In this document: positions 12,395-58,390 of the stretch, piece after piece
Layout of the letters: every line of letters starts with the position of its first letter
Numbering within the stretch: position 1 is the stretch's first letter
The notes under the pieces: model-generated
Told to the model about the DNA's origin: nothing
The model's input: the letters and a program-made list of their open reading frames with translations, nothing else
The model's database searches: none
IMG/VR virus record: IMGVR_UViG_3300010244_000098
Length of the DNA stretch: 64,000 nt
Strand: one strand, 5' to 3'
DNA from: a virus
Position numbers and translations under genes: made by a program

Positions 12395-12501
12395 ACCGAC
12401 ATTCCTGCCTCTCTTTATTTTTGTAGCAAACAAACGCATAATCACCGACACTCATTTGCACGCCACTGGAACTATTCACTATCCATCATGCCATGAATGT
12501 G

Positions 12502-19260: not shown

Positions 19261-19273
19261 AAGGAGACTATAC

Positions 19274-19840
19274 ATGAAATACGGATACGCACGCGTAAGT
19301 ACAAAACATCAAGACTTCGAAGGACAGATTCGACAACTCAAAGAGGAACGGTGCGATCAAATTTTCTCAGAGAAAATATCAGGAAAAAGCACCAATCGTC
19401 CTCAGTTCCAAAAAGTGATCTCCCTGCTCGAGCCGGGTGACATGTTAGTCGTTACAAAACTCGACCGATTCGCCCGCAGTACCAAAGAAGCGTTAGAGAT
19501 TATTGAAAACCTCTATGAAAATGGAATTCGAATCCACGTGTTAAATATTGGAATTATTGATAACGAAAACGCCACAGGAAAATTAATATTCACCATCATG
19601 TTTGCTTTCGCCGATTTTGAACGCAATTTAATCCTTGAACGAACCTGGGAAGGCAAAGAAATCGCCCGACAAGATCCGGACTTCAGAGAAGGACGTCCGC
19701 GTAAGTTCAAAAAAGCGCAAATGCGCCATGCTATAAAATTACTGGACGACCACAGTTATAAACAAGTAGAAGAACTAACAGGCATTAGCGTCAGCTCCTT
19801 GTATCGCTACAAGAAAAGAATGCAGGACGAAAAAACATAG
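19274..19840 (+). CDS. serine recombinase (resolvase/invertase)
   Basis: RBS AAGGAG; [28 protein letters not shown]-terminal HTH. Confidence 0.95.
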
Positions 19841-20306: not shown

Positions 20307-20546
20307 TTATGTAAGGAATAATGTTGCGGAACCTTCAATAAGCAATGCAACAACAACAACGAAATCGAGAAGGATAAGCACAGACAAAAAACCGCCTAAG
20401 CACTGATCAAAGAACGAGTTTCTCGCTACTCGCGTGGTTGCAGATATTCCTTTGTCATTAATGGCTCTAAACTCCCGCACGCTCGAATAAAGCACTGCGA
20501 CAGCTAAAAGTAGATGAATAGCATACATGACATCCTTCCTTTCCAT
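20307..20546 (-). CDS. small membrane protein
   Basis: Two hydrophobic segments; start overlaps the parE stop. Confidence 0.6.
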   Translation of the reverse strand: MERKDVMYAIHLLLAVAVLYSSVREFRAINDKGISATTRVARNSFFDQCLGGFLSVLILLDFVVVVALLIEGSATLFLT

Positions 20547-22537
20547 TAAACCACTTGAACAAAATCAACGTTGTTCGCCAGCCATGAGCGACGTGCGGAG
20601 CTTGCAGACACTCCTTCTTTCGGTCTTGACCCCAAGAACAATTCCAACATGCGTGTCAGGTCTTGTTCATTAACAACCTTGAGCTGTGTCAAACGACGAG
20701 TCGCCGGACTCATAGTTGTTTCTTCTAACTCTACGGGGTTCATTTCTCCCAACCCTTTCAAACGAGTGACCTTCCAACCTCTGTATTGATCTTTCATTTG
20801 TTCATACTCAGATTGGTCAATCGCAAAGGCTTTTTCACGCTGTCCTTTGACATAGCGGTCGAATCGGTACAACGGGGCGTTCGCTACGTACACATGGCCA
20901 TAACGTAATAAATCAGGCATGAGCTTCCAGATAGCCAGAATCAACAACTCTAAGATATGGAACCCGTCGTCGTCCGCGTCGGCCATAATAATCAATTTGT
21001 TGTACTGAATATCATCGATATTGAAATCAGTCGCTACACCTGCACCGATTACATTAACTAGTGTAGCAATTTCTTCGTTCTTCATGATAGCCCCTAACCG
21101 TTTACTGGAAACGTTCAATGGTTTTCCCCGGAGAGGAAGGATTGCCTGCGTATACGGATCCCGTGCCGATTTTGCGGAACCGCCGGCGGAATCCCCCTCG
21201 ACCACAAACAATTCTCGCTCATGCGGTTTCCGGCTGGTGGCCTTGGTTAATTTTGTAGACATGAGAAGTTTCTCTTTGCCCTTCTTCCCTTTTCGCGCTG
21301 CTTGACTGACCTTTCGGGCTTCGCGTGCAGCTTCTCGGGCAGATTTTGCATCAAGCATTTTATCAACGATTTTCCTGGCGTCTTTTTCGTGTTGATGCAA
21401 CCACAGATTTAATTCGCTCTCCAGAACCATTTTGACAGCTTTTTTAGCCTGTGTCGTCCCCAATTTTTCTTTCGTTTGACTCTCAAACTGGAGCAGTTCC
21501 TCACTAATCCCCAAAGAAATGGCTAACACAAGGCCGTCCCGGGTGTCTTTCGGGTCCACCGTACTGTTCTTCGCCAGTTTCTTCGCTTTGATAAACTCTC
21601 GAAAAGCGTCTCTGACGGCGTCTTTCCCTCCTTCTTCATGAGGACCTCCGTCTCTTGTTGGAATAGCGTTCGCAAAACTAAAAATCTGCTCGCCGACCGA
21701 TTCCGTATAAAGCAGTGCCAAATCTACAAGAATAAAAGGTTCATCTGTCGATTCAGAAGGTGAAACGATACGATCTGGTTGTTTCTTGTCGTCCAGTAAA
21801 ACTCGTTTTGTAATGCGCATAGGCTCTTTAAAACCGATCCGTTCACTTTCGTCACTGACTGACTTGACTAAATCCCCAATACCTTCTTCATAAAGAAAAG
21901 AAACAGGGTCTTCCTCGTCCCGTTTATTGACAAACACATACTCGACACCGTCCGTTAAATAGGCCATACTGTCCAGTTTATTTTTTAAACTGTAAGCATC
22001 CCAGTGAATCGTATCGAAAATACGATCATCCGGAAGGAAATGAACGAAGGTTCCTGTTTCTTCGTCCAATGCTGTTTTCTCAGAATAAAACTCACTCACT
22101 TGGTCTTGTTCAAACTGAACATGATAGGTGTCGCCGACACTTGTTACAGCGTCGACAGACAACCACCGGCTCAGCGCATTTGTTGCCTTACTTCCTATAC
22201 CATGTTGTCCTCCGGACATCTGATACGCTTCACTGTCGAATTTTCCAGAGGTATGTAAAACGGTGAATGACCGAATAACAGAGTCGCCCTTCTCTCCCAT
22301 TGGGACACCGCGTCCAAAGTCCTGAACACTCAACGAATTATCCTCATAAAGTGTCATGACAACTTTCTTTCCGTAACCACCCAGTGCTTCATCCGTACTA
22401 TTGCTTAAAATCTCTTGAGCCAGTTGAAGAAGGGCACGGGGGTTTTCTCCGTCAACACTTGATGTTGACCCAACATACATTCCTGGTCGTTTACGAACAG
22501 CTTCTAATCCTTCTAAAGTCGTTACATTATCGTACAT
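20546..22537 (-). CDS. parE: type IIA topoisomerase subunit B (ParE-like)
   Basis: LEGLEAVRKRPGMYVG, DFGRGVP, VEGDSAGGSAK, PLRGK, IMADADDDG, RLKGLGEMN. Confidence 0.93.
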   Translation of the reverse strand: MYDNVTTLEGLEAVRKRPGMYVGSTSSVDGENPRALLQLAQEILSNSTDEALGGYGKKVVMTLYEDNSLSVQDFGRGVPMGEKGDSVIRSFTVLHTSGKFDSEAYQMSGGQHGIGSKATNALSRWLSVDAVTSVGDTYHVQFEQDQVSEFYSEKTALDEETGTFVHFLPDDRIFDTIHWDAYSLKNKLDSMAYLTDGVEYVFVNKRDEEDPVSFLYEEGIGDLVKSVSDESERIGFKEPMRITKRVLLDDKKQPDRIVSPSESTDEPFILVDLALLYTESVGEQIFSFANAIPTRDGGPHEEGGKDAVRDAFREFIKAKKLAKNSTVDPKDTRDGLVLAISLGISEELLQFESQTKEKLGTTQAKKAVKMVLESELNLWLHQHEKDARKIVDKMLDAKSAREAAREARKVSQAARKGKKGKEKLLMSTKLTKATSRKPHERELFVVEGDSAGGSAKSARDPYTQAILPLRGKPLNVSSKRLGAIMKNEEIATLVNVIGAGVATDFNIDDIQYNKLIIMADADDDGFHILELLILAIWKLMPDLLRYGHVYVANAPLYRFDRYVKGQREKAFAIDQSEYEQMKDQYRGWKVTRLKGLGEMNPVELEETTMSPATRRLTQLKVVNEQDLTRMLELFLGSRPKEGVSASSARRSWLANNVDFVQVV

Positions 22538-24616: not shown

Positions 24617-27568
24617 TTAAGCAGTTTCGTTAACAGCCAAGGTATTTTCGAATGACTGAAAATCTCGGGAAAGACGCGTTGTACGATTCGACCGTGAGCG
24701 GTTCAAAGCGTCTTCCAGAACAGTTTTCGACCCGAGAATAACGACTTTATCTTTCGCCCTTGTCAGAGCTGTATAAAACAGTTCCCGGTAAGACATAGTT
24801 GTGATATCGGACGCATCGGGAAGGCAGATAACAACGGTGTCCGCCTGACTTCCCTGTGATTTATGAATAGTCATGGAGTAAGACAGAGCTAACGAGTCGC
24901 CCTTGTTCTCAACATCCTGTCTGTTGTAATACACCCATGGGTTATGCTCGATATCCGTTTCTCCGTCCATACTGTCAAATTGGACAAACATGCCTCCGTC
25001 TCGTGTAATTGCACGCACTGTACCGATATCTCCGTTCATGATTGGCGACGTACTCGGCGAGAACAAATCCTTCTCCTGAAGACGGCCATACCACATGGTT
25101 GTAATGTCTTCGAGGGTATACTCCCTCTCTTTTTTCTTCTCCACGTCTAACGTTAAAAGTTGATATTTGTTTTTTGTATTCATAACCCGGTCGCCCACGC
25201 GGAACACCGCGGAATTGTTTACACTGAACCCTGAACCGGCCCCGTATTTTTTAAACAGTTTTTTGTTCAGCTCAAACAACGACGTTTCTCCTTCACCCTT
25301 GTTCAACGCTCCAGATATAGTTTGATACGATTCCAATTGTATAGACTGAGGGAGGCTTCCACGAAACGGACGACTAATCCCCTGAATGACTTGGTTGAAC
25401 GGTGTCACAGCCAATCGTTTACCAGAACCTTTCTTTGAAAAAGGCATGAGAATCAAACTGTTTTCGATATCTAACAGCTCCTGTCGGTACTGATAGTACA
25501 AGAAAGACGCCACCCAGCCACTGTATCCATATGCTGAATTCAAATCGGGAACCTGTCGTTGCACATCTGACAAGTATGCTTCATCTTTGACCAACTCTTT
25601 CTTATGTACATCGGTCAATAATGGATAATCCGTGATGGAGAATCGACCGTCGAAATGAAGATCTTCAACAGAAATATATTCGTCGTTTTGAGCTTTATTC
25701 CGTATAGTGTAGGTATTTTTCATAATCGTCCCTTTGGAACGAAACGGTTGATTCAAATGAAACTGGCCGGCTTGAGTCAAGGTTTTCAAGTCACGCAATA
25801 CAGCTCCTGCCCCAATAGACGGCAGTTGTTCATCATCCCCGATAAATACTAAACGGTAACTTTTGGGTATCTTTCGGAGAATGGCCTCTAACAACACTTC
25901 GTCGAGCATGGATGCCTCATCAATAATCAACCAACGACTCCCTTGCTCATCTCCGCGTGCTTCTTCTCTAACAGTAGAGTATTTCTCTCCTAAGAAAGAG
26001 TGAACTGTGTATGTTTGGTCTTGAATATGACGCAGCGCTTTAAATTCCTCGGTATAACTGTCATCATTCAATGATTCCCTCATTCGTTTCGACGCTTTTC
26101 CTGTCGGGGCGCAAAACACAATTTTATGAGACCCTTCTTCAAACAAATCGTTGCTTACCCGTGTTAATGTACTCAAGAAGTATTTCAACATCGTCGTCTT
26201 ACCGGTTCCGGGTCCTCCTGTCAGAACGCTAATTGAATGATTATTCAACCCTTTCAATGCGTCGATTTGAGCTGGGTCCAAATGAATCTGTTCGTCTTCA
26301 CTTTGTTGCTCGCCTAGGGATTCGATAACTTCTTGAAGCCCCTGCTCGTAAAGATCTGTGTCGACAAAAGGTTCATTTCCTGTCGATAACCGACGGGAGA
26401 ACTCTGAAACAATCGTATCGTTCCGGTCGTGAGCCGGTCGAAATTGGATATAAAACTCCTCTCCTTCAGGAAAAACAATCACGGGATAATAGGCCTCCGT
26501 GTCTTGAAGAACGGCCTTGATATCATCGTACTGTTGAGAGAACCCGCCCGACTGCACGGCTTCTTTGTGCATGGCCTCCGTAAAAAGGAACATCGTATCG
26601 TCGGCATGAGGCCCGTTGAATGACCCGTCTTTATGATTTTTTAGAACACGGGTTAATTCTAAAGCATAAGAGAATAAATCGGTATCCCCTAACCCGAGGA
26701 GCTCAAAAGTGGCATCGTCCACGACGTGGCCGGTCATTTCCATAACCCCTCTGGTAACAGCAATCGTTTCTTTAACCTGTTTCATGGTCTGGGTCATAGG
26801 GTCTCCGGATAATTGAAGAATGATTTCCGGGTGGGCCATCAAATAAGTGACGTGTCTCCCGTAGTCTCCGGTCCGTTCGCGCAAGGCCGTCGGCAGTTCG
26901 TATTCTTTGTGGTTAACCATAAGAGAAATGTATCGAAACACCGGTTTCCACTGTTTAATTGACTGTTGGAAAGGGAATGACCGAGATGAAGAAAAGGAAA
27001 CAAGGTTGAAATGGTTGAGTGTATTATAGAAATAACTTTCGTCAGTGATAAGCGTTTCAATGGCCTGTTCAATATCTTCACGGCTGTCGAGAACAGCTTT
27101 CAACAGACGGTCAGGAACACCCATGTTCTTTGTTGAATCGTCTGTACGAATATACGTGTCCAATTCCTCAAAGAACAACCCTTTGGTGTTAAACACCCAT
27201 ATTAATCGCTCAGCATAGGTTTCTCCTACGCCGTGTACGATCTGAATCAACGCGTCACGTAACTGTTCGTCGTCAATGTTCTGGTACGCCTGGCTCCGAT
27301 CGCCACTGTTATAGACCGTCATTCCTTTCTTCTGCTGTTTGGTCTCTTCCAAAATAACCTGGAACCCTGTACGTTTTCCTTTGTCGTACGTTTCCATATC
27401 AAACAAACCACGAACGACAATTGCATCGGATATATCTGTATCTTCATATTTGTAAGGTGTGAAAGATCCTTCTAGCTCAGAGTAATAAAGACCACTTGCG
27501 TTCATATAGGGAAAGTTTTTATGTAATTCCCCTGTTGGTTTAAAAAATCCTGATACAATGGTTGGCAT
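24617..27568 (-). CDS. recD2: RecD2-like SF1B DNA helicase
   Basis: HhH VHGVGETYAERL, LTGGPGTGKTT, CAPTGKAS, IIDEASML, IGDDEQLPSIGAG, YSMTIHKSQGSQ, YTALTRAK. Confidence 0.9.
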   Translation of the reverse strand: MPTIVSGFFKPTGELHKNFPYMNASGLYYSELEGSFTPYKYEDTDISDAIVVRGLFDMETYDKGKRTGFQVILEETKQQKKGMTVYNSGDRSQAYQNIDDEQLRDALIQIVHGVGETYAERLIWVFNTKGLFFEELDTYIRTDDSTKNMGVPDRLLKAVLDSREDIEQAIETLITDESYFYNTLNHFNLVSFSSSRSFPFQQSIKQWKPVFRYISLMVNHKEYELPTALRERTGDYGRHVTYLMAHPEIILQLSGDPMTQTMKQVKETIAVTRGVMEMTGHVVDDATFELLGLGDTDLFSYALELTRVLKNHKDGSFNGPHADDTMFLFTEAMHKEAVQSGGFSQQYDDIKAVLQDTEAYYPVIVFPEGEEFYIQFRPAHDRNDTIVSEFSRRLSTGNEPFVDTDLYEQGLQEVIESLGEQQSEDEQIHLDPAQIDALKGLNNHSISVLTGGPGTGKTTMLKYFLSTLTRVSNDLFEEGSHKIVFCAPTGKASKRMRESLNDDSYTEEFKALRHIQDQTYTVHSFLGEKYSTVREEARGDEQGSRWLIIDEASMLDEVLLEAILRKIPKSYRLVFIGDDEQLPSIGAGAVLRDLKTLTQAGQFHLNQPFRSKGTIMKNTYTIRNKAQNDEYISVEDLHFDGRFSITDYPLLTDVHKKELVKDEAYLSDVQRQVPDLNSAYGYSGWVASFLYYQYRQELLDIENSLILMPFSKKGSGKRLAVTPFNQVIQGISRPFRGSLPQSIQLESYQTISGALNKGEGETSLFELNKKLFKKYGAGSGFSVNNSAVFRVGDRVMNTKNKYQLLTLDVEKKKEREYTLEDITTMWYGRLQEKDLFSPSTSPIMNGDIGTVRAITRDGGMFVQFDSMDGETDIEHNPWVYYNRQDVENKGDSLALSYSMTIHKSQGSQADTVVICLPDASDITTMSYRELFYTALTRAKDKVVILGSKTVLEDALNRSRSNRTTRLSRDFQSFENTLAVNETA

Positions 27569-29230: not shown

Positions 29231-31606
29231 TTAAAAGATGCTCGGTGGGAATTCATACACCTGTCTCGGGTTGATCGCTTCACCGTTTTGACGAATTTCA
29301 AAGTGGAGGTGGTCTCCAGAAGACCCTCCGGTGTTTCCTTCATATCCGATGTGATCGCCGGCTTTCACTTCCTGTCCGACTTTAACCGTCCCCGGACTGT
29401 TCAAATGCAGATAACGCGTTTTGACAGGAACGTCCGGATCAAGCCCGGCGTCATTTTCTCCCGGCGGGCCGTGTTGGATATCAATAAAGTTCCCGGCTGT
29501 CGCATGAGACATGACTTGAGTCACCTTGCCGTCAGCCGCCGCGAAAATTTGAGCGTTAGAGTGCATTTTGTCGCCGTTGTACTGCATATCAATACCGGCG
29601 TGCAAACGGCCCCAGCGGTGTCCAAACTCACTGGTTATATGGAACTGACCCTGAGGGATCGGATACACATACCCGTCCAGGGACCCTTCGGCCATCACCG
29701 CATTAGAAACATCTTCGAGCAGAATAGGACCGCTTCCGGAATAATCAACACCTAAATGGTGCATAATCGCGTTCGGATAATGAAAGTCTCCTCCATTCCG
29801 CCAGTAATACGGTTTTCCGATAGATGTTGCCCACGGCGAGTTGTTCGGGTCTTTGTCCGACTCGGTTGCCGAACGCCCCATTAGGGACGGAAGAACCACG
29901 GTTTTGGAATAGTTTTCAGCAATATCACTCGTCCAGTGACTATGGCTATTATTGCTCATCCAGCCTAAGAAGACATGCCCCATGTTGTACCCTTGAAGAA
30001 TTGCCCGCAGATCTTGAATGCCGTTCGATTCCGCATTGTCAATCGCGTTTTTTAGTGCCAAAACGCCGTAGTGAATACTTGTCTGAGGATCCGTGAACGT
30101 GTTCATCGGAAGCCCCTGCGACTCACTCGACTGCATGACATCGGGGTAGGATTCGATATTCCCGCCTGTTTCCTGTTGAATTAAACCCAATACTATGTAT
30201 GTCCAATCTTCTGACAGGCCGTGGGTTTTAACAGCCTGGGACGCTTCGTCTTCAAAGCGGAGAACCTTATCGGTCAATCGATGGTTGGAAAAGTCCATTC
30301 CTACCGCCTGTTCTTCCACCATACTTTCCTGATTAGATAAAATGGTCTGAACAACACTGCTGAAAATCAAACCGCCCAGTAAAAGGAAGACCAGAATGCC
30401 TCCGATAATGTAAGGGAGGTGACTAATGACAAATTGTCTAACGCCGGTTTTCGCATACTCTTTTGCAACATCACCGCCCATGGACCAGGCCTCTTTTATG
30501 TTGGCCGTAAAAGACCCTTGGTTCAACCGGCCGCTGCTCACGTCTTGAGCAATACTCATGGCTCCGCCAATGCCGGTTATATCTCCGGCCATCTCCGACC
30601 CGGCTTCTTCTATGTCGGGCATGTCCATCCCGGAAGAACTAAAAAAATCATCGGCGCCTTCCTCGTCAAGAAACCCAGCGCCTCCGCTTGTAGAGGATTC
30701 TTCGTCAAAAAGATCTTCGGGTTCGTTGTCGATTCCTAACGACTCGCTCTCCTCTCCAGACACGGCCCCGTCCTCAGAACCGGGGTCACCCGTATTATCA
30801 TCTGTAAGAGAGTTGGCTTCATCCGGGTTCATGGCGTTCTTTGCCTGTTCAGCGCCGGTTATGTCCTCATCCGGATCCGGAGGGATTCCACTGGGCAGGG
30901 GTTGTTCGGCGCCAATAGCCCCCGGGGCGTCCGAGGCGTCATCGGTCTCATTCATGTCGCCGCCGAAGTCATTGGATGTCTCAGAATCGTCTTCGTCAGA
31001 AGCGTCCTTACCATTGTCAATGCCATCCTCGGGAACGGATCCGTGGTCTCCAGGGGTTGTTTCTTCGTTGACCTCCGGATTTACTGGGGTGCCGGTTCCG
31101 TCTATGTCACCGGACGAGTTCGTATTGTATTCTTCCCCGTCTTCTGCAGAATCCGGTTCATCAGACCCGGTACCGCTCTCGTCATCGTCAATTTCATCGT
31201 TCAATGACGAATCATCCGACGGTTCATCGAGATGTTCTCCACCAGACGCCTCCAGATCTTCTTCGTTTGGATCACTACTTTCTTCGTCCGCTTCTTCTTC
31301 TTCGGCGTCATCCTCTGCCGGAGGGTCGTTTATATCGGAACCGGGTTCCTCCTCGTCACTCAACGGATCATCAGGCGATGTATTGTAACGGTCTCCTGTG
31401 GAACCAGAGGTATTATCCCCGGGCTCCGAATATGTAGGGTCTACATCGCTGGGATCCGATTCGCCATCAGAAAAAGGAGGATCCTCATTTCCCGAATCGG
31501 GGCCAAGATTGTAGCCGTCGCCGGAATCATCCGACCCTGACGGTGTTCGACGAGTGGTACTCGTCCGTTCGCTATCCTGCCACCAATCGTTTGTTGTTTC
31601 TGCCAT
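29231..31606 (-). CDS. conjugative cell-wall hydrolase (VirB1/CwlT-like lysozyme + M23 peptidase) with long acidic N-terminus
   Basis: IQQETGG...DVMQSSES...LQGYNMG (lysozyme-like); HAGIDM, YLHL, GSSGDHLHFEIR (M23). RBS GAGGTGAGG supports the start at 31606. Confidence 0.88.
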   Translation of the reverse strand: MAETTNDWWQDSERTSTTRRTPSGSDDSGDGYNLGPDSGNEDPPFSDGESDPSDVDPTYSEPGDNTSGSTGDRYNTSPDDPLSDEEEPGSDINDPPAEDDAEEEEADEESSDPNEEDLEASGGEHLDEPSDDSSLNDEIDDDESGTGSDEPDSAEDGEEYNTNSSGDIDGTGTPVNPEVNEETTPGDHGSVPEDGIDNGKDASDEDDSETSNDFGGDMNETDDASDAPGAIGAEQPLPSGIPPDPDEDITGAEQAKNAMNPDEANSLTDDNTGDPGSEDGAVSGEESESLGIDNEPEDLFDEESSTSGGAGFLDEEGADDFFSSSGMDMPDIEEAGSEMAGDITGIGGAMSIAQDVSSGRLNQGSFTANIKEAWSMGGDVAKEYAKTGVRQFVISHLPYIIGGILVFLLLGGLIFSSVVQTILSNQESMVEEQAVGMDFSNHRLTDKVLRFEDEASQAVKTHGLSEDWTYIVLGLIQQETGGNIESYPDVMQSSESQGLPMNTFTDPQTSIHYGVLALKNAIDNAESNGIQDLRAILQGYNMGHVFLGWMSNNSHSHWTSDIAENYSKTVVLPSLMGRSATESDKDPNNSPWATSIGKPYYWRNGGDFHYPNAIMHHLGVDYSGSGPILLEDVSNAVMAEGSLDGYVYPIPQGQFHITSEFGHRWGRLHAGIDMQYNGDKMHSNAQIFAAADGKVTQVMSHATAGNFIDIQHGPPGENDAGLDPDVPVKTRYLHLNSPGTVKVGQEVKAGDHIGYEGNTGGSSGDHLHFEIRQNGEAINPRQVYEFPPSIF

Positions 31607-32129
31607 ATCCTCACCTCTCTTTCGCCGTGCCACAAGGCCGTGGCACGTTATTCGAGTCCAGTATAGCACACGGCCGGGTTCGGAATACATACCCACCCTA
31701 TTGAGCGTGTTTCTACTATTATATGTCGATTCTTTGTGTCGGTCGTTGCCAAAAGATAAAAACGTGTTTCTACTATATAAATGCACCTTTTATTTTAAAA
31801 CCCGACAAAAAAGAAGCGCCCCTTTTTTAAGGAACGCTTCTTAAAGACAGATCTCTCTATGTATTGTATGTAGATAAAGAAAACCTGTTTGTCATTATTA
31901 CGGGCTTTCACCCAAAGACGTGTGTGTATTTATTATAGCACGGCACGGATCCGATAGGCAATCATTAAAATCATTTCGCCGTGTCCTTTTATCGTCTGTA
32001 CTCCCACAGCGTATTCAACATAAAGATAAAGTCCGGGAGAGATCTATACGAAAAGCCCGTTTATTTTATGCAATAATTGATAATTTATACACGGAAATGA
32101 ATAAAAAAACCACTTCACAAGCTCCGTTT

Positions 32130-33005
32130 CTCTGGGACATCTTGGGACAAAGTCTATTTTGAAAGAGAGTAAAAAACCGACCTGAAACTTACTCCCCCAA
32201 CGGAAAAGACGATTTTACCCGCTCTGTCCCATTCTGGGACAAAATGGGACATTTCTGGGACAAAACGGGAAAATTTGGGACAGATTTATCAATTTCACAA
32301 ACTTTTTTGCTTTCGCTCATTTATTTTCAAAAAGCTTGGTTTTACAAAAGCTCACTCAATACACTTTTGCGAAATCAAGTAAATTATTTTTTGAGGGGTT
32401 TTATTTCTAAAAAGGTTGGTTTTACAAAAGCTCACTCAATACACGTCCATGACGACAAAATGACCCAAAAAAGGCTAAATTATACACACTCAATGCGCTT
32501 TTGCAAAATGAGGTATTTTACAAAAAAATACTTGCGGGATACAAGTACCCGGAAAAACCCCAAATTCTGTCCCAAAAATAGGGGTGTTTGTCCCAAAAAA
32601 AGGCGATTTTGTCCCAGAGCCCTATTTTTGCAAAAGTGCTATAAAGGCTGATACAAAAGCAATGGAATGAAAACAACGCTTTCGCTCTGACCCAAAATGT
32701 CCCAGTCTGGGACAAGAAAAAAGAAAAGAAAAAGAGTCTATAAAAACTGATATAAAAGGATTATTAAAGAAATAAGAGATAGATATTTAAGAGTTTTGTC
32801 CCAAAATTCCCATATATAAAACTAGAAAGTTTGATTTGGGAAATCGGCCTTTGAGAAAAGCTTGGTTTTACAAAAGCTCATTCAGTACACATATTTTATC
32901 TATTTTATACACATTCAATGAGCTTTTGCGAAATCAAGTAAATTATTTTTTCTATTTTTCAAAATTCAATAGGGGGTTTTCGGAATCGATTTTGGGACAA
33001 ACCCG
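32130..33005. repeat. iteron-rich putative replication origin at the strand-switch point
   Basis: More than a dozen TGGGACA/TGTCCCA heptamers with 10-11 or 21-bp spacing; three copies of ~AAAAGCTTGGTTTTACAAAAGCTCACTCAATACAC; two of CTTTTGCGAAATCAAGTAAATTATTTTT; AT-rich 32715-32790. Confidence 0.7.
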
Positions 33006-33158
33006 ATTTTTCCGACTTGTATAAATGAATGTATATTCTGTATACATGGAACACCTCCCTCACCGGCTCAGCCGGTAGAGGGTGAAGGAGCGATTGCTCA
33101 TTAGTTAAATTTCCGTCGAAGCCTTTTAGATAAATGTGTAATATATACACGTTGGGAA

Positions 33159-33218
33159 TTGACTTTGTCTTCCTCGGTTGATATACTAATAATAGAGAAA
33201 CGTTGCAATATTGCAACG
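33159..33218 (+). promoter_or_regulatory. sigmaA promoter plus perfect 18-bp palindromic operator of the primase/PolB operon
   Basis: TTGACT-17-TATACT, 13 bp, CGTTGCAATATTGCAACG (33201-33218). Confidence 0.78.
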
Positions 33219-33248
33219 GAATACACCGTCAAAGAAAGGAGCCTTTTT

Positions 33249-33527
33249 ATGGCTAAAAATTATGTCCGCAAAAATATGATGTTCCCTTCAGAACTTTACA
33301 GTGAAATAGAACAATATAGAGAAAAACATCATCTGTCTCACGTAACACAAGCAATCGTTCAATTGCTCGATATGGGTCTGGAATACACGCGAAAAATCGA
33401 GGAACGGTCTCTTACGGAATTAGGAATTGAGGTAGATACATATCCAGGCCCTTCGGTCGATAAGCAGGAAATGGAAAAGAAAAAAGTTAACGATGAAGAA
33501 GACGACGCTTCTGTTATAGAGAAATAA
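33249..33527 (+). CDS. RHH-like DNA-binding protein
   Basis: RBS AAAGGAG; VRKNMMFPSELYSEIEQYREKHHLSHVTQAIVQLLDMGL. Confidence 0.65.
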   Translation: MAKNYVRKNMMFPSELYSEIEQYREKHHLSHVTQAIVQLLDMGLEYTRKIEERSLTELGIEVDTYPGPSVDKQEMEKKKVNDEEDDASVIEK

Positions 33528-33579: not shown

Positions 33580-36417
33580 ATGAAACTTGTTTATACAGGA
33601 GATCGATTGATGTCGAAGGACCCCGTTATCCAACAACCGTTTACGGCTGTCGAGTGGGTTCTCAAGCGTCATGAGTGGGCCAAAAACCATATTCAAGTAG
33701 ATCCGGATACATTTCTATTTGACTGGTCAGATCCGGAACCCTACGTTACGTATGCGTTGGATAAGAAACAAGAACTCGAAATCAAGAAAATCAAACAGAA
33801 AGACAATAACTTTCTATTCGCGACCGCATTCGGCGACATAGATAATCCGCAGACCCCGGACCGTGCTCCACGAAAAACAAGTGAAAACGGAGGGGTCTTG
33901 CGTCAATTCATCGGGTTGGATTATGATTTGATTACATTGGACGAAGCGAAAGAATTAAGTCAAAATGTTCATCAATTGTTGATTCACCAACAGGAAGCCA
34001 ATGTGGCTATGTACCCGAGTATCAGCTATCCATGGAAACCCCGTTTCCGCGTCGTGATCGACACGAAACAGTGGCTGGACAAAAAGACCTACAAGAAAGC
34101 TGTAGAGCACGTCATCGAATACTTGGGCGTGGATCCCCATGACGAATCAAACTATACTCTGGCCAAGCCTCTGAACAGTCCGTTGTACCTGCACGAATCG
34201 TCCGCCCGGTCGGTGATGTTCCAGACGACGAAGAAACCTCTCAATCTGACAAGAATTGGTTTTGACCCAGAGGAGGTTCGCCGGAGTCACGCGACCAAAA
34301 AAGCCACGCGGTTGTCCTCCTCGCCTTCGAAAAAGAACGACGATGACCAGGACGAGCCTATCGCTCCCTATCGGAGTGACCAGATTATCCAGGCTGTCGA
34401 TACTTTCTTGGCAAGCGATGAAGCCAGAGAGCAGATTGAAGATTATGACTATTTCTGGCGCTTTGCTGAAAGTCTGGCAGATGCGTACATGAGAGAGCTC
34501 GTTGACCGAGATTTCATTGATTATACGCTTCGTACGGTCGCCTTAGGGGACGCTCAGTGGGAAGAAGACAATTTAAATGTATTCGAAACACAACTGTCTA
34601 AATTGGAAGAATCGCCGGATAAACGCCAGTTAGTACGTCCTTTGAGCACGTATTTACCTATTGCCAGTGAAGTAAAAGCCAACAATCCTGACGTGCGAAA
34701 CCTCAGTCAACTGCTGGCCAGCCTGCTTCCCTCGACGTTTGAACCCAGCGGGAAATACAGCGTACAGGACGCTGCCGATACGATTGGCCAGTTCTTTGAA
34801 TTCGGCCTGCTCCCAGGTATTGAAGATGACGCGGAGGCTTTAGCTATATTTGACCCGTTAAACGGTATCTGGACGCATTCCAACAACGACTTTATTGCGA
34901 TGTTGAACGTTATCAAACCCGCTATCACACCGACTCAGGTGAAGACGGCCACGCTTTACTGGGCCGCTCAGGCGAACCGGAGTGATACGTATATCCGGCC
35001 TTACGACGGCAGTCAGTATCTGGTGTTTAAAAACACTGTCTTGGATATCAGCACTATGCAGACGCACGACTTAGGAAGCGAAAAAGTGAAGCGACAGCAG
35101 TTTACCAAGCGACACCAGATGATTATAAACTACGATCCGGATCCCGAATTGATCGACTATCCGACCGACAGCTTAAACGGACAAAACTGGAACGTGGAAC
35201 AATTCATCAGTGCGTACGCCCATAACGACGAAGATATACGAAAATATTTCCTTTTCGGTCTGGCGTTAGGTCTCTTTGCAGGTCATAATTCCGGTGTACA
35301 CTTTGATATTCAAGGAGAATCAGGGTCGGGGAAATCCACTCTGGCTTACATTTTCCGCGGGTTATACGGGTCTCAACGGGTTGCTGAAATCTTATTCAGC
35401 GACTTGAATAAAGAGTTCCCTATTACCAATTACAACCACGACACGACAGTGATCTGGGTCAAAGAATCCAATACCGGAACCAGTCCTTTGGACGACGACC
35501 ACGGCACGCCCTTTTATGACGGCCTGGCCGACGGGTATGCCCGTATTCCAGTAAAACACGCCGGAGACCAAATCGTGGCCAATCCGCCACAGGTCTACAT
35601 TGACGGAACACAATTGATCCAGTCTAACGACATTCGTACAGGACCGGCACGTCGTACTCTGGCCTACAAATTACCTAGTCCGATTGAACCATACCGGAAG
35701 CAGTTTTATTCCAATAACATTCATGAACGACTCATGACAGAAGAAAACCTGCAGTATATGGTTATGCAGATGATTCAAGCCTTCAGGACGATCGTTCCTG
35801 AACACCGCTTGGATAATTTCAAACTAAACCTCGGCGTGAAACATGATTTAGACATGCTCCCTAACATTGCTAAAGAATGGCGACAGGACTTCGTCAGCGC
35901 TGATTCCAATATGCGCCAATGGTATGACGACATGGTGTCCGAGTTCATTCTAACGGACAATATGGACGCCTGGTTGACCGATAGTTTCTTTTATGAGCTG
36001 TATCTTCATTGGTATGAGCAACGAAACCCGCAGGACCGGACCAAACGGTTTGCACGGCGCCTGCCGAACTTCACGGACATTTTGTATCAAATCTTTGAAG
36101 AAGTCGGCCTCCATATCATTACATTCAAAGACGCAGAGGGTCGAAACCGTTCGCGCATCACCTCTCCAGATAAGTGGGGAATTCACTGGGACGAATACGA
36201 TGAAAACCACACTCGTCCCGCACGGCTGTTGGATATCGGCCAGTGGAGTGAGGTGTACAAGAAACGCGTGAAGAACATTTACCGTCTTGTGACCTCTGAA
36301 CCTGACGAGCGACTGTATGACAAAGAAAGTCCTTTGGTCTATCATCCAAAAGAGTCCACGCGGGTCACCCAAAACCAATTACTGAAAACATCCAGCAAAA
36401 CCAAAAGCTCTGAGTGA
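33580..36417 (+). CDS. primase-SF3 helicase (phage/plasmid D5/P4-type)
   Basis: Prim-pol motifs FIGLDYD and PRFRVVI, PriCT-like YDYFWRF, D5_N-like LVFKNTVLDI, Walker A GESGSGKST, ARR finger, C-terminal winged-helix-like YELYLHWY. Confidence 0.82.
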   Translation: MKLVYTGDRLMSKDPVIQQPFTAVEWVLKRHEWAKNHIQVDPDTFLFDWSDPEPYVTYALDKKQELEIKKIKQKDNNFLFATAFGDIDNPQTPDRAPRKTSENGGVLRQFIGLDYDLITLDEAKELSQNVHQLLIHQQEANVAMYPSISYPWKPRFRVVIDTKQWLDKKTYKKAVEHVIEYLGVDPHDESNYTLAKPLNSPLYLHESSARSVMFQTTKKPLNLTRIGFDPEEVRRSHATKKATRLSSSPSKKNDDDQDEPIAPYRSDQIIQAVDTFLASDEAREQIEDYDYFWRFAESLADAYMRELVDRDFIDYTLRTVALGDAQWEEDNLNVFETQLSKLEESPDKRQLVRPLSTYLPIASEVKANNPDVRNLSQLLASLLPSTFEPSGKYSVQDAADTIGQFFEFGLLPGIEDDAEALAIFDPLNGIWTHSNNDFIAMLNVIKPAITPTQVKTATLYWAAQANRSDTYIRPYDGSQYLVFKNTVLDISTMQTHDLGSEKVKRQQFTKRHQMIINYDPDPELIDYPTDSLNGQNWNVEQFISAYAHNDEDIRKYFLFGLALGLFAGHNSGVHFDIQGESGSGKSTLAYIFRGLYGSQRVAEILFSDLNKEFPITNYNHDTTVIWVKESNTGTSPLDDDHGTPFYDGLADGYARIPVKHAGDQIVANPPQVYIDGTQLIQSNDIRTGPARRTLAYKLPSPIEPYRKQFYSNNIHERLMTEENLQYMVMQMIQAFRTIVPEHRLDNFKLNLGVKHDLDMLPNIAKEWRQDFVSADSNMRQWYDDMVSEFILTDNMDAWLTDSFFYELYLHWYEQRNPQDRTKRFARRLPNFTDILYQIFEEVGLHIITFKDAEGRNRSRITSPDKWGIHWDEYDENHTRPARLLDIGQWSEVYKKRVKNIYRLVTSEPDERLYDKESPLVYHPKESTRVTQNQLLKTSSKTKSSE

Positions 36418-36475
36418 TGCAGACACACCGGTGTCTGCTCATAAAAGGGTTTGTGAGAGAAAGGAGAAGACGGAT

Positions 36476-36997
36476 ATGCTACAAACAACAGAACAACAAG
36501 AAACGGAACGCGTCATGGAACGAATCAAAACAATGATTGAACAACGCATTAAAAAACACAGCGCTCCCTTATACCATACAGTGCAGAGGAACATAGCCGA
36601 CTTAAATCAAACCGTTTTTCAGACAGACACCCAGGTTCTTCGTTTAGTTCATGTCAAATACCGAACAGCAGAGTATGATTGGAACAAAGAACTCATTATT
36701 ACGAAACAACCCAGTGTCTTTACTGACAGAGAACTGATTTTGAGACTGTCGGATTCTTTAAAAAACCATATTCACGTGACCTTTGCCCTGTCAAGCACAG
36801 ATCCGAACCAACAAATAAACGATGCGAACATTAAGGTTCACGTCAAAACAAACCCTCGTCTCCGTGCCTCGTCTTTAAATAAGGCGCTGAGCACGTTATT
36901 GAACGAATGGACGAAAGAACCAATGGACGATGTTCTCGCGCGATGCCAAACAAAAATCAGTCAGGCAATTCTGATGAATCCGGCCCCTGATAAATAA
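36476..36997 (+). CDS. hypothetical protein
   Basis: RBS AAAGGAG before ATG 36476; lies between the primase and polymerase genes. Confidence 0.7.
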   Translation: MLQTTEQQETERVMERIKTMIEQRIKKHSAPLYHTVQRNIADLNQTVFQTDTQVLRLVHVKYRTAEYDWNKELIITKQPSVFTDRELILRLSDSLKNHIHVTFALSSTDPNQQINDANIKVHVKTNPRLRASSLNKALSTLLNEWTKEPMDDVLARCQTKISQAILMNPAPDK

Positions 36998-37024: not shown

Positions 37025-40000
37025 ATGGTTGCGTACAACCGATTCGATGTTTTTTATGACTATGAGGTCTTACAAAACGTCACGACCAACGCCATGCTTT
37101 ACCCTGGCGCAAAGAAAATCATAATCCCTTACAATACCCATATGGATAGTATTCAACCCGGCGACCATGAACTTCACGTCACCCCAGACGATGAACAATG
37201 GATCCGTGATTACGTTATCGAACAGAATAAAAGCAGTTTGCGTCGCTGGGGGGTTCCTGAAGACAATGTTCAATTAACCTCAAACTTTGTCGGAGAAATC
37301 GTTCAGCTAAATACAGTCAACAAACGCTACACCCTCCCCTATCACGGAGGGACGATGTTCGGGTATAATTCCAGCGGGTATGATGTTGCCATTACAGCGT
37401 TTTTATTAGATGAAATCAACGAATTATTGAAAAGCAATAAGAATGATCCGAAAGCGGTCAATATCAGTGCAAAAGATGTTCGTCAATTTTCAGACGCTTT
37501 AATCAACGGCCCGTCTAAAAGCCCGTGGCAGGGTGTCCGTGATTATGGAGACCAATACACGCGACGATCTTTATTTAATACGTTTGCGACATTGATGAAC
37601 AACCCGTACAACATAGATGTTCAATCACTGAACGCTAAAATGTCGAAAACAGCTTTGAAACGATTAGCTGCACAAGGCGGATTTAAAATTGAAACCAGCG
37701 ACAAACTATCTGAGCAAGCTTCAACTCTTCACTCTGTGGAGGAACTGGCTGAACTTCTGGCTTACAACGTAAACGATATTTTTGCTACGTTATGGTTGTT
37801 TGAACAAAAGCCCTACCAGACGCCGTACAACCAGCGAATCACGTTGATCGACCGGTACGGGGACAATCAATTCAAAGACAAAAACATTAAACGGGATTCA
37901 ACTGAAGCAAAATTGATTGAGAACGTGATCAGTCCTCGTGAGTCACTAACGGACGATCCCGAAGTCTCTTTGGCTTACCCTGTGACCCGCGGGTACATGC
38001 CCGATTCGTTTAAAAACCCCGACTTTACACTGGAACAAGCGAATGCTCTCTACAATCATTTAGAAGACGTGGCCAAAAAAAGCCACCCGGCGTTGTTTAA
38101 CGAAAATCCGTCCAAAGCCATGAACATGTATCTGTTCGAAAAATACGAAGAAGAAAAAGACCGCAATCCCGAACACCTTATTGTGAAGCATTTCTTCTTT
38201 AAAAACGGGTCCAATAAAATCATGGCAAGCAACGGCGAATTCGTATACACGGCAGACGGCTACAAAGGCTTTAACCGAACAATGCTCTCTGCTCTGGGAG
38301 AATATATCTTAAACACGGGTAATAGAGAAACAAACGATGCGCAGAAACAATTAAATCTTCAAGAAAAAGACGATTTAATGAAGCGGGCCTCCCCTAATGA
38401 CAATACGCCTGAAGTCAAATGGGACGAAACGGTCAACACAGTAATTGAACATATCGCAGAAGATCACCCGTTCTACCCGTGGTTTTATTATGAGGACGGT
38501 ATGAGAAAAGTTGTCGCTAAAGACAAACGTCTCATGGTTGACTTATTAAATTATGTCAGCAAACATTACAACCTGCCTCAAGATGTGTATACGTACTATG
38601 ACGCCTACCGTGGCCAAGACATGGGTGTGCGCGATGCTTCGAAAGCCGTAAAAGCCCAACTGGAAAAAGACGGATATAAACACTTGAAATCCGGCGCAGC
38701 CGTCCTCTTAACTCCGGAAAGCCCGGTGTATGTCACGATGTCTATCGGAGGCGTTCACGGAAACTTGATTGATCTGGAGAAATACAAAGAAGATAAGGCT
38801 ACAGCCGATACTTACAACGGCGAACGACAAGCCGTTATAGACTTTTACAGAGAAAAAGCCTCCCAGTTCAGTGCAGAAAAATACATTAAACTCACCGGCG
38901 AAACGTCTCAACAGGAGCAGGACAAGATTTATAGTCTGCTCGGAAAGATAAGCGACGACCCGGCGGACGATACCGTGCCGGCTGTCTTAGCCCGCCGAAC
39001 CAAACGAAACGGTTTTGTTCTGGGTGAAGGACAAGATATTCAAGATATGGAACCGTATCAATTCACGACAGGGTCCTACTCTCAGGCAAAATTTAAAACG
39101 AAGAAAACAACCAAGTCTCTCAAAACGTATACAACAACCCTGTATGACTTTGACGTTGTGCACATGGATATTTCCAGTTATTACCCGACGTTGATCTCTA
39201 TCCTGCAGACATTGAAGGCTCCAAGTGGTCAGGATCAGTACAACGATTTACGTCTGGAACGAATCAAATTGAAAGAACGTATTCCGTCCGACCCGGCAAC
39301 CTGGAACGAACAGGATAAAGAAGACCAGTCTATCCAACTGGCTAACAAGTTGCTGTTGAACGCCGCATCCGGCGCTGCCGATGCCAGTTATGACAACAAT
39401 ATCCGGGTAAACAACAAAGCTTATCGGATGCGTATTTCTGGACAGCTGATTTTATTGGCTTTGAGTCTGGATATTGCTGAAGCCGGCGGAGTTCCGAACT
39501 CAATCAACACGGACGGAGTTTATGCTCATGACATCAGTGAAGACACGGCAGACACCTTGATTCAGTCCTGGGCCAGCCTGTACAGTTTAGAAGCGGACAC
39601 GGAAATGGTGGATATTCTGATATCTAAAGATTCCAATAACCGTATCGAATACTACTTATCTGACCGGGGTGAAAGCATTATTGCATCCGGTGGAACAGTT
39701 GGGAACTGGGAAGGCACTACGCTCACAGGAAACTTGAACCGCCCTCCAATTGTCGATCGTGCATTGACGTACTATTTGATCAATCACGACAGTCCTTTGA
39801 CTCATTTTGACCGGAAATATGTCACAGACTACATTACCGGCTTCATTCAAGACCGCTTGGAGAAAGCCAAAGAAGACCCTGAGGAGCGGGAGGACCTGTT
39901 TAACTATTTCCAGACGCCGTTTGTATCCAATGTGAATAAGAACCGCTATATTGTCTACAAAGACACAAATGACCAATGGTCGTTCCCGAGCCCAATCAAC

Positions 40001-40312
40001 CGTATATTCTATACGAAGAAAACCGAAGAAGCCCTGCAGGCAACCATGGTTGTTATCAACCGAACCATTAAGAAAGACAATCCAGAAGCCCTGCGTATTG
40101 CTGATGAAACAAATCTCCTTGAGGACTCTGATTATCATACCGATGATAAAGTTCATGCTGGAACCATGAAAATTACAGGAGCCGATACGGAACAATGGTT
40201 TACAATCAAAAACCAAAGTACGGCGACTATCGACTGGCAATTTGTGAATGACTTTGACATTGAAGCCTATGTTGATAGTGTCCAAGATCAGTGGGATAAC
40301 TGGGCTGTATAG
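37025..40312 (+). CDS. family B DNA polymerase with 3'-5' exonuclease (phage type)
   Basis: ExoI FYDYEV, ExoII GYNSSGYD, ExoIII YNVND; polymerase motifs GGVHG, DISSYYP, KLLLNAASG, SGQL, INTDGV, KDSNNR. Confidence 0.85.
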   Translation: MVAYNRFDVFYDYEVLQNVTTNAMLYPGAKKIIIPYNTHMDSIQPGDHELHVTPDDEQWIRDYVIEQNKSSLRRWGVPEDNVQLTSNFVGEIVQLNTVNKRYTLPYHGGTMFGYNSSGYDVAITAFLLDEINELLKSNKNDPKAVNISAKDVRQFSDALINGPSKSPWQGVRDYGDQYTRRSLFNTFATLMNNPYNIDVQSLNAKMSKTALKRLAAQGGFKIETSDKLSEQASTLHSVEELAELLAYNVNDIFATLWLFEQKPYQTPYNQRITLIDRYGDNQFKDKNIKRDSTEAKLIENVISPRESLTDDPEVSLAYPVTRGYMPDSFKNPDFTLEQANALYNHLEDVAKKSHPALFNENPSKAMNMYLFEKYEEEKDRNPEHLIVKHFFFKNGSNKIMASNGEFVYTADGYKGFNRTMLSALGEYILNTGNRETNDAQKQLNLQEKDDLMKRASPNDNTPEVKWDETVNTVIEHIAEDHPFYPWFYYEDGMRKVVAKDKRLMVDLLNYVSKHYNLPQDVYTYYDAYRGQDMGVRDASKAVKAQLEKDGYKHLKSGAAVLLTPESPVYVTMSIGGVHGNLIDLEKYKEDKATADTYNGERQAVIDFYREKASQFSAEKYIKLTGETSQQEQDKIYSLLGKISDDPADDTVPAVLARRTKRNGFVLGEGQDIQDMEPYQFTTGSYSQAKFKTKKTTKSLKTYTTTLYDFDVVHMDISSYYPTLISILQTLKAPSGQDQYNDLRLERIKLKERIPSDPATWNEQDKEDQSIQLANKLLLNAASGAADASYDNNIRVNNKAYRMRISGQLILLALSLDIAEAGGVPNSINTDGVYAHDISEDTADTLIQSWASLYSLEADTEMVDILISKDSNNRIEYYLSDRGESIIASGGTVGNWEGTTLTGNLNRPPIVDRALTYYLINHDSPLTHFDRKYVTDYITGFIQDRLEKAKEDPEEREDLFNYFQTPFVSNVNKNRYIVYKDTNDQWSFPSPINRIFYTKKTEEALQATMVVINRTIKKDNPEALRIADETNLLEDSDYHTDDKVHAGTMKITGADTEQWFTIKNQSTATIDWQFVNDFDIEAYVDSVQDQWDNWAV

Positions 40313-54974: not shown

Positions 54975-55100
54975 TCAAAGAGTACGCGAGACAGGCAGGA
55001 ACTTCGGTTCCTGTCTATTTTTTTGACCTGTTTCACGGTCTTCATTTTACAAAAGACTTAATGCTATACTGAATCTATAATGTATACGAGGAGGAAACAC

Positions 55101-58346: not shown

Positions 58347-58390
58347 TCCAGGGAGTTTACTTCCCTAATCGCTTTTGATATACTGAAATT

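Follow-up and report, generated by a model that had tools for sequence, protein, structure and literature searches.

The 64,000-nucleotide (nt) stretch of the IMG/VR virus record IMGVR_UViG_3300010244_000098 analysed here (the window), which a protein search record places on a parent contig of 222,077 bp, contains a 1.46-kb non-coding gap between a minus-strand gene for a cell-wall hydrolase (29231-31786) and a plus-strand gene for a small protein that starts at 33249. The gap harbours a field of short repeats, or iterons, with the heptamer TGGGACA, and is followed by plus-strand genes for the small protein (P0016), a predicted primase-helicase (P0001), a protein of 188 amino acids (aa) and a predicted family-B DNA polymerase (PolB; P0014) (Table 1). 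After testing, the best-supported reading of this arrangement, and one that we hold to be moderately probable, is an iteron origin of replication served by the adjacent primase-helicase.

Table 1. Features of the gap and the downstream operon (window coordinates), and heptamer fields at four related loci (coordinates of the respective locus)
Feature	Position	Strand	Details
Outer-left iteron pair	32133..32149	+	2 TGGGACA, 10 bp apart
Main left iteron cluster	32225..32282		Palindrome 32225-32241, then + copies at 32245, 32256, 32276
Spacer between facing iteron sets	32283..32567		285 bp, ~65-75% A+T
Right iteron set	32568..32616	-	3 TGTCCCA, 21-bp spacing, facing the left cluster
Second palindromic site	32688..32714		1-mismatch copy at 32688, then TGTCCCA-N3-TGGGACA 32698-32714
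A+T-rich tract	32715..32796		~81% A+T, purine-rich on the + strand, bracketed by iterons 32708(+)/32797(-)
Lone iteron	32797..32803	-	Right edge of the A+T-rich tract
Repeat unit C	32854..32953	+	100-nt imperfect hairpin, ~34-nt loop, followed by a T-run
Rightmost iteron	32993..32999	+	
Promoter-like site	33159-33187	+	TTGACT-17-TATACT with TG
Perfect 18-bp palindrome	33201-33218		CGTTGCAATATTGCAACG; distinct from the heptamer
Small protein P0016	33249..33527	+	92 aa, orphan
Primase-helicase P0001 (predicted)	33580..36417	+	945 aa
188-aa protein	36431..36997	+	Between helicase and polymerase genes
Divergent family-B DNA polymerase P0014 (predicted)	37025..40312	+	1095 aa, with 3'-5' exonuclease domain
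L004 field, TGTGGCA	4800-5500		12/12 copies of the locus in the field; 414 bp upstream of the helicase gene
L003 field, GGACGAG	4431-5139		11/11 copies in the field; 682 bp upstream of the helicase gene
L002 field, [GT][AC]CGAGC	3061-3476		9/11 copies in the field; 816 bp upstream of the helicase gene
L005 field, TGGGAAA	12369-13016		9/10 copies in the field; ~4.1 kb downstream of the helicase gene

Counting both strands, TGGGACA occurs 17 times in the window, whereas 100 dinucleotide-preserving shuffles of the same 64 kb contained 6.84 ± 2.47 copies on average (maximum 13; 0/100 reached 17). Fourteen copies fall within positions 32133-32999, eight on the plus and six on the minus strand, such that a left set faces a right set; the remaining three are isolated and each lies within an open reading frame (ORF). 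Heptamers with one mismatch number 18 in the interval 31790-33250, compared to 3.2 expected from their density in the remaining window, and the palindrome TGTCCCA-N3-TGGGACA is found at two sites (32225 and 32698) against an expectation of 0.11. With the flanking bases included, a looser consensus reads approximately T-TGGGACA-A-A. A first-pass annotation, made from the sequence alone, had already recognised a helical phasing of these repeats, and the spacings between neighbouring copies within clusters (10, 10, 10, 11, 20, 21, 21 and 10 bp) agree with it. All ten heptamers reported there (plus strand: 32133, 32143, 32235, 32245, 32256 and 32276; minus strand: 32568, 32589, 32610 and 32698) are exact, but the list was incomplete, as four further exact copies at 32225 (-), 32708 (+), 32797 (-) and 32993 (+) had been overlooked.

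In a k-mer scan, no second TGGGACA cluster was seen in the 64-kb window, and no second cluster of the respective heptamer in the 12-14-kb relatives considered below. The identical scan also recovered the iterons of a Rep_3 replicon at 14166-14944, which thus serve both as a positive control for the method and as a contrast in anatomy. Besides, scanning a viral collection with the palindrome TGTCCCA-N3-TGGGACA returned more than 162 stretches, some of them in phage contigs. There, in contigs of unrelated phages (behind L009-L011, L018-L020 and L041-L055), many copies of the palindrome are dispersed, one every few hundred bases, and may constitute operator or terminator sites. An involvement of host DnaA in the field was also considered but lacks support: TTATNCACA occurs six times in the window compared to 2.7 times expected (6/100 shuffles reach six), and both in-field copies of TTATNCACA sit in copies of one repeat.

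The gap itself is built from repeats at several scales. Direct repeats rich in A and T had been noted in the first-pass annotation and do exist, yet they are 45-46 nt long rather than 28-35 bp. They form two families with three copies each (32320/32400/32846 and 32341/32475/32900), which combine into three composite units termed A, B and C; units A and B, together with one degenerate iteron at 32461 (-), lie in the spacer between the facing iteron sets. Folded as single-stranded DNA, unit C reaches -14.2 kcal/mol (z -4.9; 0/200 shuffles equal), and the hairpin of unit A (32327-32394), a shorter version of that of unit C, has a z of -2.85, while unit B, with inverted arms at 32400-32434 and 32494-32528, folds no better than shuffles (z -0.33). 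No conserved hairpin, and no counterpart of unit C, was found in the fields of the relatives. The second palindromic site at 32688-32714 is a diverged duplicate of 32210-32252 (repeat family D3). This family and the spacing of the long repeats show that a unit of about 450-530 bp was duplicated and has since diverged to give the field, with two half-fields at approximately 32130-32620 and 32680-33000. An A+T-rich tract between iteron sets, a trait of the origin class in question, is present at 32715-32796 according to computed duplex stability: this segment is the least stable duplex of the gap, ranks fourth among the 80-bp stretches of the window and is a candidate DNA-unwinding element. Rfam returned two chance-level eukaryotic families for the gap and nothing else, and ORFs within it (e.g. 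32244-32651, 135 aa) were rejected as genes, as they look like translated repeats.

How the field compares to its counterparts elsewhere can be judged from four metagenomic relatives of P0001 (L002-L005), which are 32-40% identical to it. A further relative, L001 from Lacticaseibacillus (25% identity), was left out of the field comparison because too little upstream DNA was available. Each of the four (4/4) has its own heptamer, concentrated in a single non-coding gap and arranged in pairs or triplets 10-11 bp apart, with clusters some 80-130 bp from one another and copies in both orientations. Over all five loci, 26 of 27 neighbour spacings of at most 45 bp lie within 1 bp of a multiple of 10.5 bp; uniform spacing would predict 26% (binomial p 9e-15, with bins picked after the data had been seen). 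Five loci thus display five heptamers, and the core GACGAG is shared by L002 and L003. A second motif common to the fields was not detected: no 8-mer with at least two G/C occurs in 5/5 fields, and no such 9- or 10-mer in at least four. When the six least stable stretches of each locus were inspected, one fell within the field or close to it in L004 and L005, yet not in L002 and L003, with the qualification that low stability discriminates less well in these A+T-rich relatives.

The only proteins common to the window and the relatives' loci, as judged by tblastn with 47 window proteins, are the primase-helicase and PolB. The gene between field and helicase gene, on the other hand, is not conserved: it encodes a MerR-type helix-turn-helix (HTH) protein in L004 (E 5e-10) and the orphan P0016 in the window, while the small upstream proteins of L002 and L003 form a related pair without a significant family. 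Within the helicase, identity to the window protein amounts to 57-64% in residues 541-700 of the ATPase core and drops to 20-29% in residues 801-870, the most divergent part. In this latter part the helicases of L002 and L003 reach 69% identity; the two form the closest protein pair, and GACGAG is common to their heptamers.

The first-pass annotation had called the gene at 33580 a primase-helicase, and structure prediction and profile searches agree, placing its product in the D5/SaPI-Rep type (SaPI, Staphylococcus aureus pathogenicity island). P0001 combines a region resembling archaeo-eukaryotic primases (AEP; residues 1-240) with a D5_N/superfamily 3 (SF3) helicase core at approximately 375-775, including the Walker A motif GESGSGKS, and a C-terminal portion (~776-945). 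Pfam gave no match at E <= 0.001 and three sub-threshold rows at E <= 10 (ABC_tran, 0.0099; D5_N, 0.019; AAA_29, 0.12), and other family matches were weak as well (PHROG 'DNA primase', 1.7e-7; TIGR01613, 0.007, far under its cut-off). P0001 had only 12 homologues in a large protein database, with 67-80% identity for P0002-P0004, and no match in PLSDB, a phage collection or IMG/VR; when 401 genomes from the class to which the Lacticaseibacillus genome belongs were sampled, a relative was found in that genome only, and a P0014-type PolB was not found there. A profile of 13 sequences (P0001 and its homologues) reached further, retrieving 262 proteins at E <= 0.001 among 1.84 billion representatives. 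Pfam was run on 37 of the 150 matches listed: D5_N and DUF5906 were found together in 11 of these (758-837 aa, covering profile positions ~43-595, E 1e-15 to 2e-26), seven of which also had Pox_D5, and the other 26 had no informative family. Sequence searches of the PDB yielded nothing with P0001 alone and, with its family profile, P-loop matches but no PriRep chain.

The AlphaFold2 model of P0001 (mean predicted local distance difference test score (pLDDT) 82.6, predicted template modelling score (pTM) 0.55) was more informative. Foldseek ranked PriRep5 of SaPI5 first (E 7.4e-13) and further listed full-length African swine fever virus (ASFV) PrimPol, mpox E5 and vaccinia D5. VIA-align applied to the Foldseek list superposed PriRep5 with a Z of 22.8 and a root-mean-square deviation of 3.1 over 351 residues (model 378-829). 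Run on 48,161 representatives, it gave PriRep5 a Z of 20.8 over 414 residues, aligning model 375-863 onto chain 316-756, with D5 (18.0), AsfvPrimPol (16.2), NrS-1 (13.4), Rep40 of adeno-associated virus (11.1) and papillomavirus E1 (9.9) in lower rows; a Z of 18.1 was also recorded for vaccinia D5. Reaching chain residue 756, the alignment spans most of the PriRep5 C-terminal domain (676-790). By its predicted structure, then, P0001 is an SF3 primase-helicase of the D5/P4/SaPI-Rep class, and a language-model atlas was concordant with this assignment as well as with that of P0014 discussed below. For the C-terminal portion, DSSP assigned the topology helix-helix-helix-strand-strand to residues 801-859 of the model, and hhalign matched residues 776-845 to the Pox_D5 region of seven distant relatives (probability 72%, E 3.3e-5, 57 columns), so that a winged-helix-like element at 801-859 is probable. 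An AEP-like nature of the N-terminal domain is supported in the model, albeit not strongly. Among nine VIA-align rows onto model residues 1-244, eight are primases, prim-pols or the LigD polymerase domain (including RepB', S-2L PrimPol, PriS and CAPP). D114 and D116, at the end of a strand (106-115), are conserved in at least 90% of the 13 sequences, and the intervening Y115 is invariant; no conserved histidine motif was identified in residues 1-240, and no Pfam family matched there. Of separate interest, the N-terminal ~330 residues of P0001 also exist as a large stand-alone family (e.g. P0097-P0197, ~320-370 aa), for which 0/8 proteins scanned have a Pfam family.

P0014 likewise escaped family searches, with no Pfam match even at E <= 10, no PDB match as a single sequence and, for the family profile against the PDB, three chance-level rows (best E 0.076). 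We found 33 homologues, 23 of which were aligned with P0014. In these 24 sequences, D12/E14, N115/Y119 and Y247/N248/D251 are invariant in the N-terminal part (D120 is near-invariant), and so are D715, S718-Y719-Y720-P721, K775, L778-N779, S782-G783 and T829-D830-G831 in the C-terminal part; we take these residues to be the Exo I-III and Pol A, B and C motifs of family-B polymerases. Residues 706-925 of P0014 matched eight phage records in tblastn (E 3e-6 to 1e-3), and DNA polymerase is the annotation of six of them. The structural model (pLDDT 84.8, pTM 0.78) matched B-family polymerases in all 50 Foldseek rows listed, albeit partially (~300-480 columns; best E 3.1e-7). Taken together, the model and the conserved residues identify P0014 as a divergent family-B DNA polymerase. 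Members of its family are named 'hypothetical protein' in genomes of Kribbella, Streptomyces, Arthrobacter, Amycolatopsis and Actinomadura (homologues P0027-P0048) and also occur on megaplasmids of Rhodococcus, Streptomyces and Gordonia; they appear to be an unannotated polymerase family. On the Gordonia plasmid pGKT2, the one actinobacterial plasmid examined, a P4-family primase and a PolB gene are present as a pair, the PolB homologue (L170 8542-12441) directly following the primase gene.

Between field and primase-helicase, the operon starts with a promoter-like site and, downstream thereof, an 18-bp palindrome that is a candidate operator of the operon (Table 1). P0016, encoded next, had neither a Pfam family nor a PDB match nor a homologue among 5.8 billion proteins; its likeness to ribbon-helix-helix proteins was noticed by eye alone and is unverified. 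For the uncharacterised 188-aa protein, tblastn found no match in the relatives' loci. On the opposite side of the gap, a strong terminator-like hairpin with a T-run (31842-31811, minus strand) is located just upstream of the start of the hydrolase gene and is preceded, at a distance of about 100 nt, by a promoter-like site (31961-31932, minus strand; TTGCCT-18-TATAAT with TG). This segment (31805-31961, minus strand), which has no Rfam match, could specify a small RNA or a terminator-controlled leader.

The wider surroundings encode several plasmid functions. Considering ORFs of at least 100 aa accepted as genes, the strand switch reported in the first-pass annotation holds for the right side, where all genes are on the plus strand, and for the left side with the exception of a resolvase gene (19187-19840). 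To the left, Pfam recognised a type IV secretion system (T4SS) coupling protein, a methyltransferase, the resolvase, a RecD2/TraA-like helicase and a lysozyme/M23 hydrolase, along with a RepA_N initiator (9989-11089), ParA (11606-12451) and a Rep_3 initiator (13161-14024). The presence of RepA_N and Rep_3 replicons elsewhere in the window makes it fair to speak, as had been suggested, of a third replicon. The Rep_3 replicon is of the classical type, its initiator gene adjoining the iterons at 14166-14944, which comprise 11 TGTGACA-containing units in a single orientation, including a 22-bp tandem of four at 14588-14675. The RepA_N/ParA/Rep_3 block has a G+C content of 0.29-0.39, compared to 0.42-0.51 elsewhere in the window. 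PLSDB returned no match for the gap DNA or for the left 14 kb. Also on the minus strand, two type IIA topoisomerase subunits (GyrA/ParC-like and GyrB-like; 3948-6110 and 20546-22537) are encoded 14 kb apart. To the right, large plus-strand ORFs include a class-A penicillin-binding protein, a superfamily 2 helicase and Cas9. Cas9 (1088 aa; WED, HNH, RuvC and PI domains) is encoded ahead of a region of repeats with a 36-nt-like unit (gene and repeats together, window 55080-59010), which includes a 65-bp unit repeated 2.5 times at 100% identity (58849-59010). This suggests a small array of clustered regularly interspaced short palindromic repeats (CRISPR) on the plasmid.

We consider it reasonably probable that positions 32133-32999 constitute an iteron origin of the P4/SaPI type bound by the C-terminal domain of P0001. 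The origin module would then consist of a small regulator, the AEP-primase/SF3-helicase initiator P0001 and the family-B polymerase P0014. In such a scheme, the winged-helix-like C-terminal domain of P0001 would read TGGGACA. Since copies 10-11 or 21 bp apart share one face of the helix, the bound protomers could cooperate, and the palindromic sites at 32225 and 32698 would take dimers. Mutually facing sets might seed the assembly of helicase rings at both flanks of an A+T-rich tract, for which 32715-32796 is the best candidate and the 285-bp spacer 32283-32567 the second. Upon melting of the DNA, the SF3 helicase would load itself, the AEP domain would prime and the element's own PolB would extend, while the small upstream protein would probably act as the operon's repressor, binding the separate palindrome 33201-33218. 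The two half-fields may represent two initiation sites, or one origin accompanied by an enhancer or copy-control array like crr of P4.

Several observations weigh against the field being such an origin. The field of L005 is positioned downstream, not upstream, of the helicase gene, and no heptamer cluster of at least five copies per 800 bp was present in non-coding DNA within 9 kb on Gordonia pGKT2. In L002-L004, two or three plus-strand genes lie between field and strand switch, so the location at the gene-orientation switch, which the first-pass annotation had included among the properties of the field, is not conserved in these loci. Regarding the protein, the N-terminal VIA-align rows have a Z of only 5.8-7.3, and the winged-helix call rests on the whole-model alignment, the 72% hhalign match and the topology. 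The skews, which had been put forward as a check, are not decisive. The AT skew flips across the gap (-0.073 to +0.159). The GC skew keeps its sign from the left (-0.123) to the right (-0.019) of the gap; a change of slope gives its cumulative curve a local minimum at 32.5 kb, but the minimum of the window is at 55 kb; and the cumulative purine skew has its minimum at 32.0 kb, inseparable from the gene-strand switch. As genes change strand at the same place, the skew signal cannot be assigned to replication within the window. Lastly, RepA_N and Rep_3 replicons are already on the element, so the module need not serve vegetative maintenance.

If the field were not an origin, the heptamers might instead be bound, as operators or in the manner of a centromere, by the small DNA-binding protein whose gene lies just before that of the helicase (P0016 in the window, HTH proteins at related loci). 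The resulting phased nucleoprotein array would silence or tune divergent promoters or act as a partition site. Phased short repeats in both orientations are also typical of ParR/ParG/omega-type arrays. A small gene indeed lies between field and helicase gene in the window, L002, L003 and L004, i.e. in all loci of the Firmicute type with the field directly upstream; that of L004 encodes a MerR-type HTH protein, and fast-evolving small regulators would equally give rise to lineage-specific motifs. However, these small proteins are orphans or belong to different folds and families even though the layout of the field is conserved, and the small ORFs flanking the field gap of L005 match no DNA-binding family. 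No family of the ParA/ParM/TubZ type is found among the genes flanking the gap, the nearest and only ParA-like gene of the window being that at 11606-12451. Moreover, the operon promoter has a palindrome of its own (33201-33218), and an 870-bp field exceeds what promoter control needs. We regard this explanation as unlikely. The conserved partnership with the field, the PriRep5-like C-terminal domain and the lack of conservation of the small protein all favour the helicase as the binder. An origin of the Rep_3/RepA kind does not fit the field either, which has 7-bp cores in both orientations and no Rep_3/RepA family in the flanking genes.

Another possibility is that the field is part of the replicon although replication starts elsewhere, e.g. 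within the helicase gene or beyond its end, as in SaPIs, pRN1 or N15-type replicons, with the field acting as a copy-control or incompatibility array, or as a crr-like enhancer, that titrates or handcuffs the initiator. P4, for instance, requires a second iteron region, crr, apart from its ori. Mention of crr is made in the accessible part of PMC4234260, and the SaPI ori lies downstream of rep according to the part of PMC9371898 available to us. The 4-kb distance of the L005 field from the helicase gene and the diverged duplication of the window field would suit such an accessory array. Yet the other three TGGGACA copies of the window are isolated within ORFs, no second cluster was seen in the window or the 12-14-kb relatives, and the field does contain a low-stability tract bracketed by convergent iterons, all of which renders this scenario improbable in our view. 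Finally, the region might be an origin of transfer (oriT) or part of a conjugative leading region, in which case the hairpins would provide the recipient with single-strand promoters or sites for priming, and the transferred strand would be completed by primase and polymerase. The T4SS coupling protein, cell-wall hydrolase and RecD2/TraA-like helicase encoded left of the gap, an ArdA antirestriction gene just before the L004 field and the better-than-shuffled folding of units A and C are in line with this. Pfam and NCBIfam scans of the neighbouring genes, on the contrary, found no relaxase family (the N-terminal 400 aa of the RecD2/TraA-like protein, 24617-27568, have no family), and it is the heptamer fields rather than the hairpins that are conserved in relatives. 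A usual oriT has one nic site beside an inverted repeat, unlike 14 phased heptamers in both orientations over 870 bp. Given also that the field accompanies the helicase-PolB pair, we deem a transfer function very improbable.

A more far-reaching proposal, which we put forward tentatively and consider rather doubtful, assigns field, primase-helicase and PolB to one native replicon, that of a so far undescribed family of conjugative elements that are very large and mostly self-sufficient. RepA_N and Rep_3, whose genes lie in a block of lower G+C content, would then be passengers acquired later by cointegration. If so, the element would bring along a phage-like replisome with a self-loading helicase and would depend little on the initiator, helicase loader and replicative polymerase of its host. 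As a rule, plasmid origins are recognised via known Rep families. Standard annotation would miss the present module because neither the initiator nor the polymerase matches Pfam and NCBI calls the polymerase relatives 'hypothetical protein'; likewise, a non-exhaustive literature search found no published description of the helicase-PolB module or its field. Should the field be an origin, it would define a replicon type for large Gram-positive conjugative plasmids that couples a SaPI/P4-style self-loading initiator with an element-encoded family-B polymerase, and its element-specific heptamers would predict a simple code of incompatibility and specificity. Such origins could be sought in metagenomic contigs by their signature, a lineage-specific 7-mer present in 9-14 copies within ~0.4-0.9 kb at multiples of 10.5 bp.

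What is already known is the iteron origin of a P4/SaPI/pRN1-type primase-helicase. New are the initiator and PolB families without Pfam models, their fixed pairing and the heptamer core, as well as the large size and duplication of the field, its place ahead of the operon and its occurrence on a 222-kb conjugative plasmid that has RepA_N and Rep_3 replicons in addition. Among known systems, Rep_3/RepA origins, exemplified within the window itself, similarly have clustered repeats beside the gene of the presumed binding protein. Their initiators are WH1-WH2 proteins that recruit the host helicase. Their iterons differ, too, being 11 copies of ~22-bp units in one orientation, whereas the present field has 7-bp cores in pairs and triplets and in both orientations. 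The first-pass annotation had drawn an analogy to P4 alpha, but PriRep5 of SaPI5 and ORF904 of pRN1 are closer, as they have AEP-type primase domains. P4 alpha has primase, SF3 helicase and a C-terminal winged-helix origin-binding domain on one chain (the latter domain being only probable in P0001), its iterons are direct and inverted with a second iteron region (crr), and distant relatives of P0001 carry the P4-type Pfam set D5_N, DUF5906 and Pox_D5. P4 relies on the host polymerase. Its primase is of the bacterial Toprim type, as stated in the accessible portion of PMC4234260, in contrast to the AEP-like N-terminal domain predicted for P0001.

In the Sulfolobus plasmid pRN1 (orf56/orf904), a gene for a small repressor precedes that for a protein composed of prim-pol, SF3 helicase and winged helix, an order paralleled in the window by the putative repressor P0016 and by P0001, and a ~100-nt stem-loop needed for pRN1 replication is comparable to the 100-nt hairpin at 32854-32953 (PMC4234260, in the part accessible). 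As far as that part describes it, however, pRN1 is archaeal, lacks iterons and PolB and has its stem-loop downstream of the gene (PMC4234260), and the hairpins of the window field are not conserved in relatives. The closest parallel is provided by SaPIs. No structure matched the P0001 model better than PriRep5 of SaPI5 (PDB 7ola/7om0), with which it aligns over N tier and ATPase and into the C-terminal domain; in the available sections of PMC9371898, these parts are delimited as 307-467, 468-659 and 676-790, and the winged helix of the C-terminal domain is reported to recognise the iterons, its deletion abolishing ori binding. According to the same sections (PMC9371898), the iterons of SaPI origins are short and specific to each element; they are split equally between the two flanks of an A+T-rich tract, at least two per flank, and point in opposite directions. 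Thus, both systems have a fused primase-helicase and element-specific iterons in oppositely oriented sets around an A+T-rich tract. They differ in that P0001 lacks sequence-level similarity to PriRep (~14-15% identity in the structural alignment), in the use of heptamers instead of the penta- and hexamers of SaPIs and in field architecture, with 14 copies over 870 bp, duplicated and upstream of the operon, as compared to 6-12 copies immediately downstream of rep. Moreover, the element at hand is a 222-kb plasmid rather than a phage satellite, and it contributes a PolB of its own to the module.

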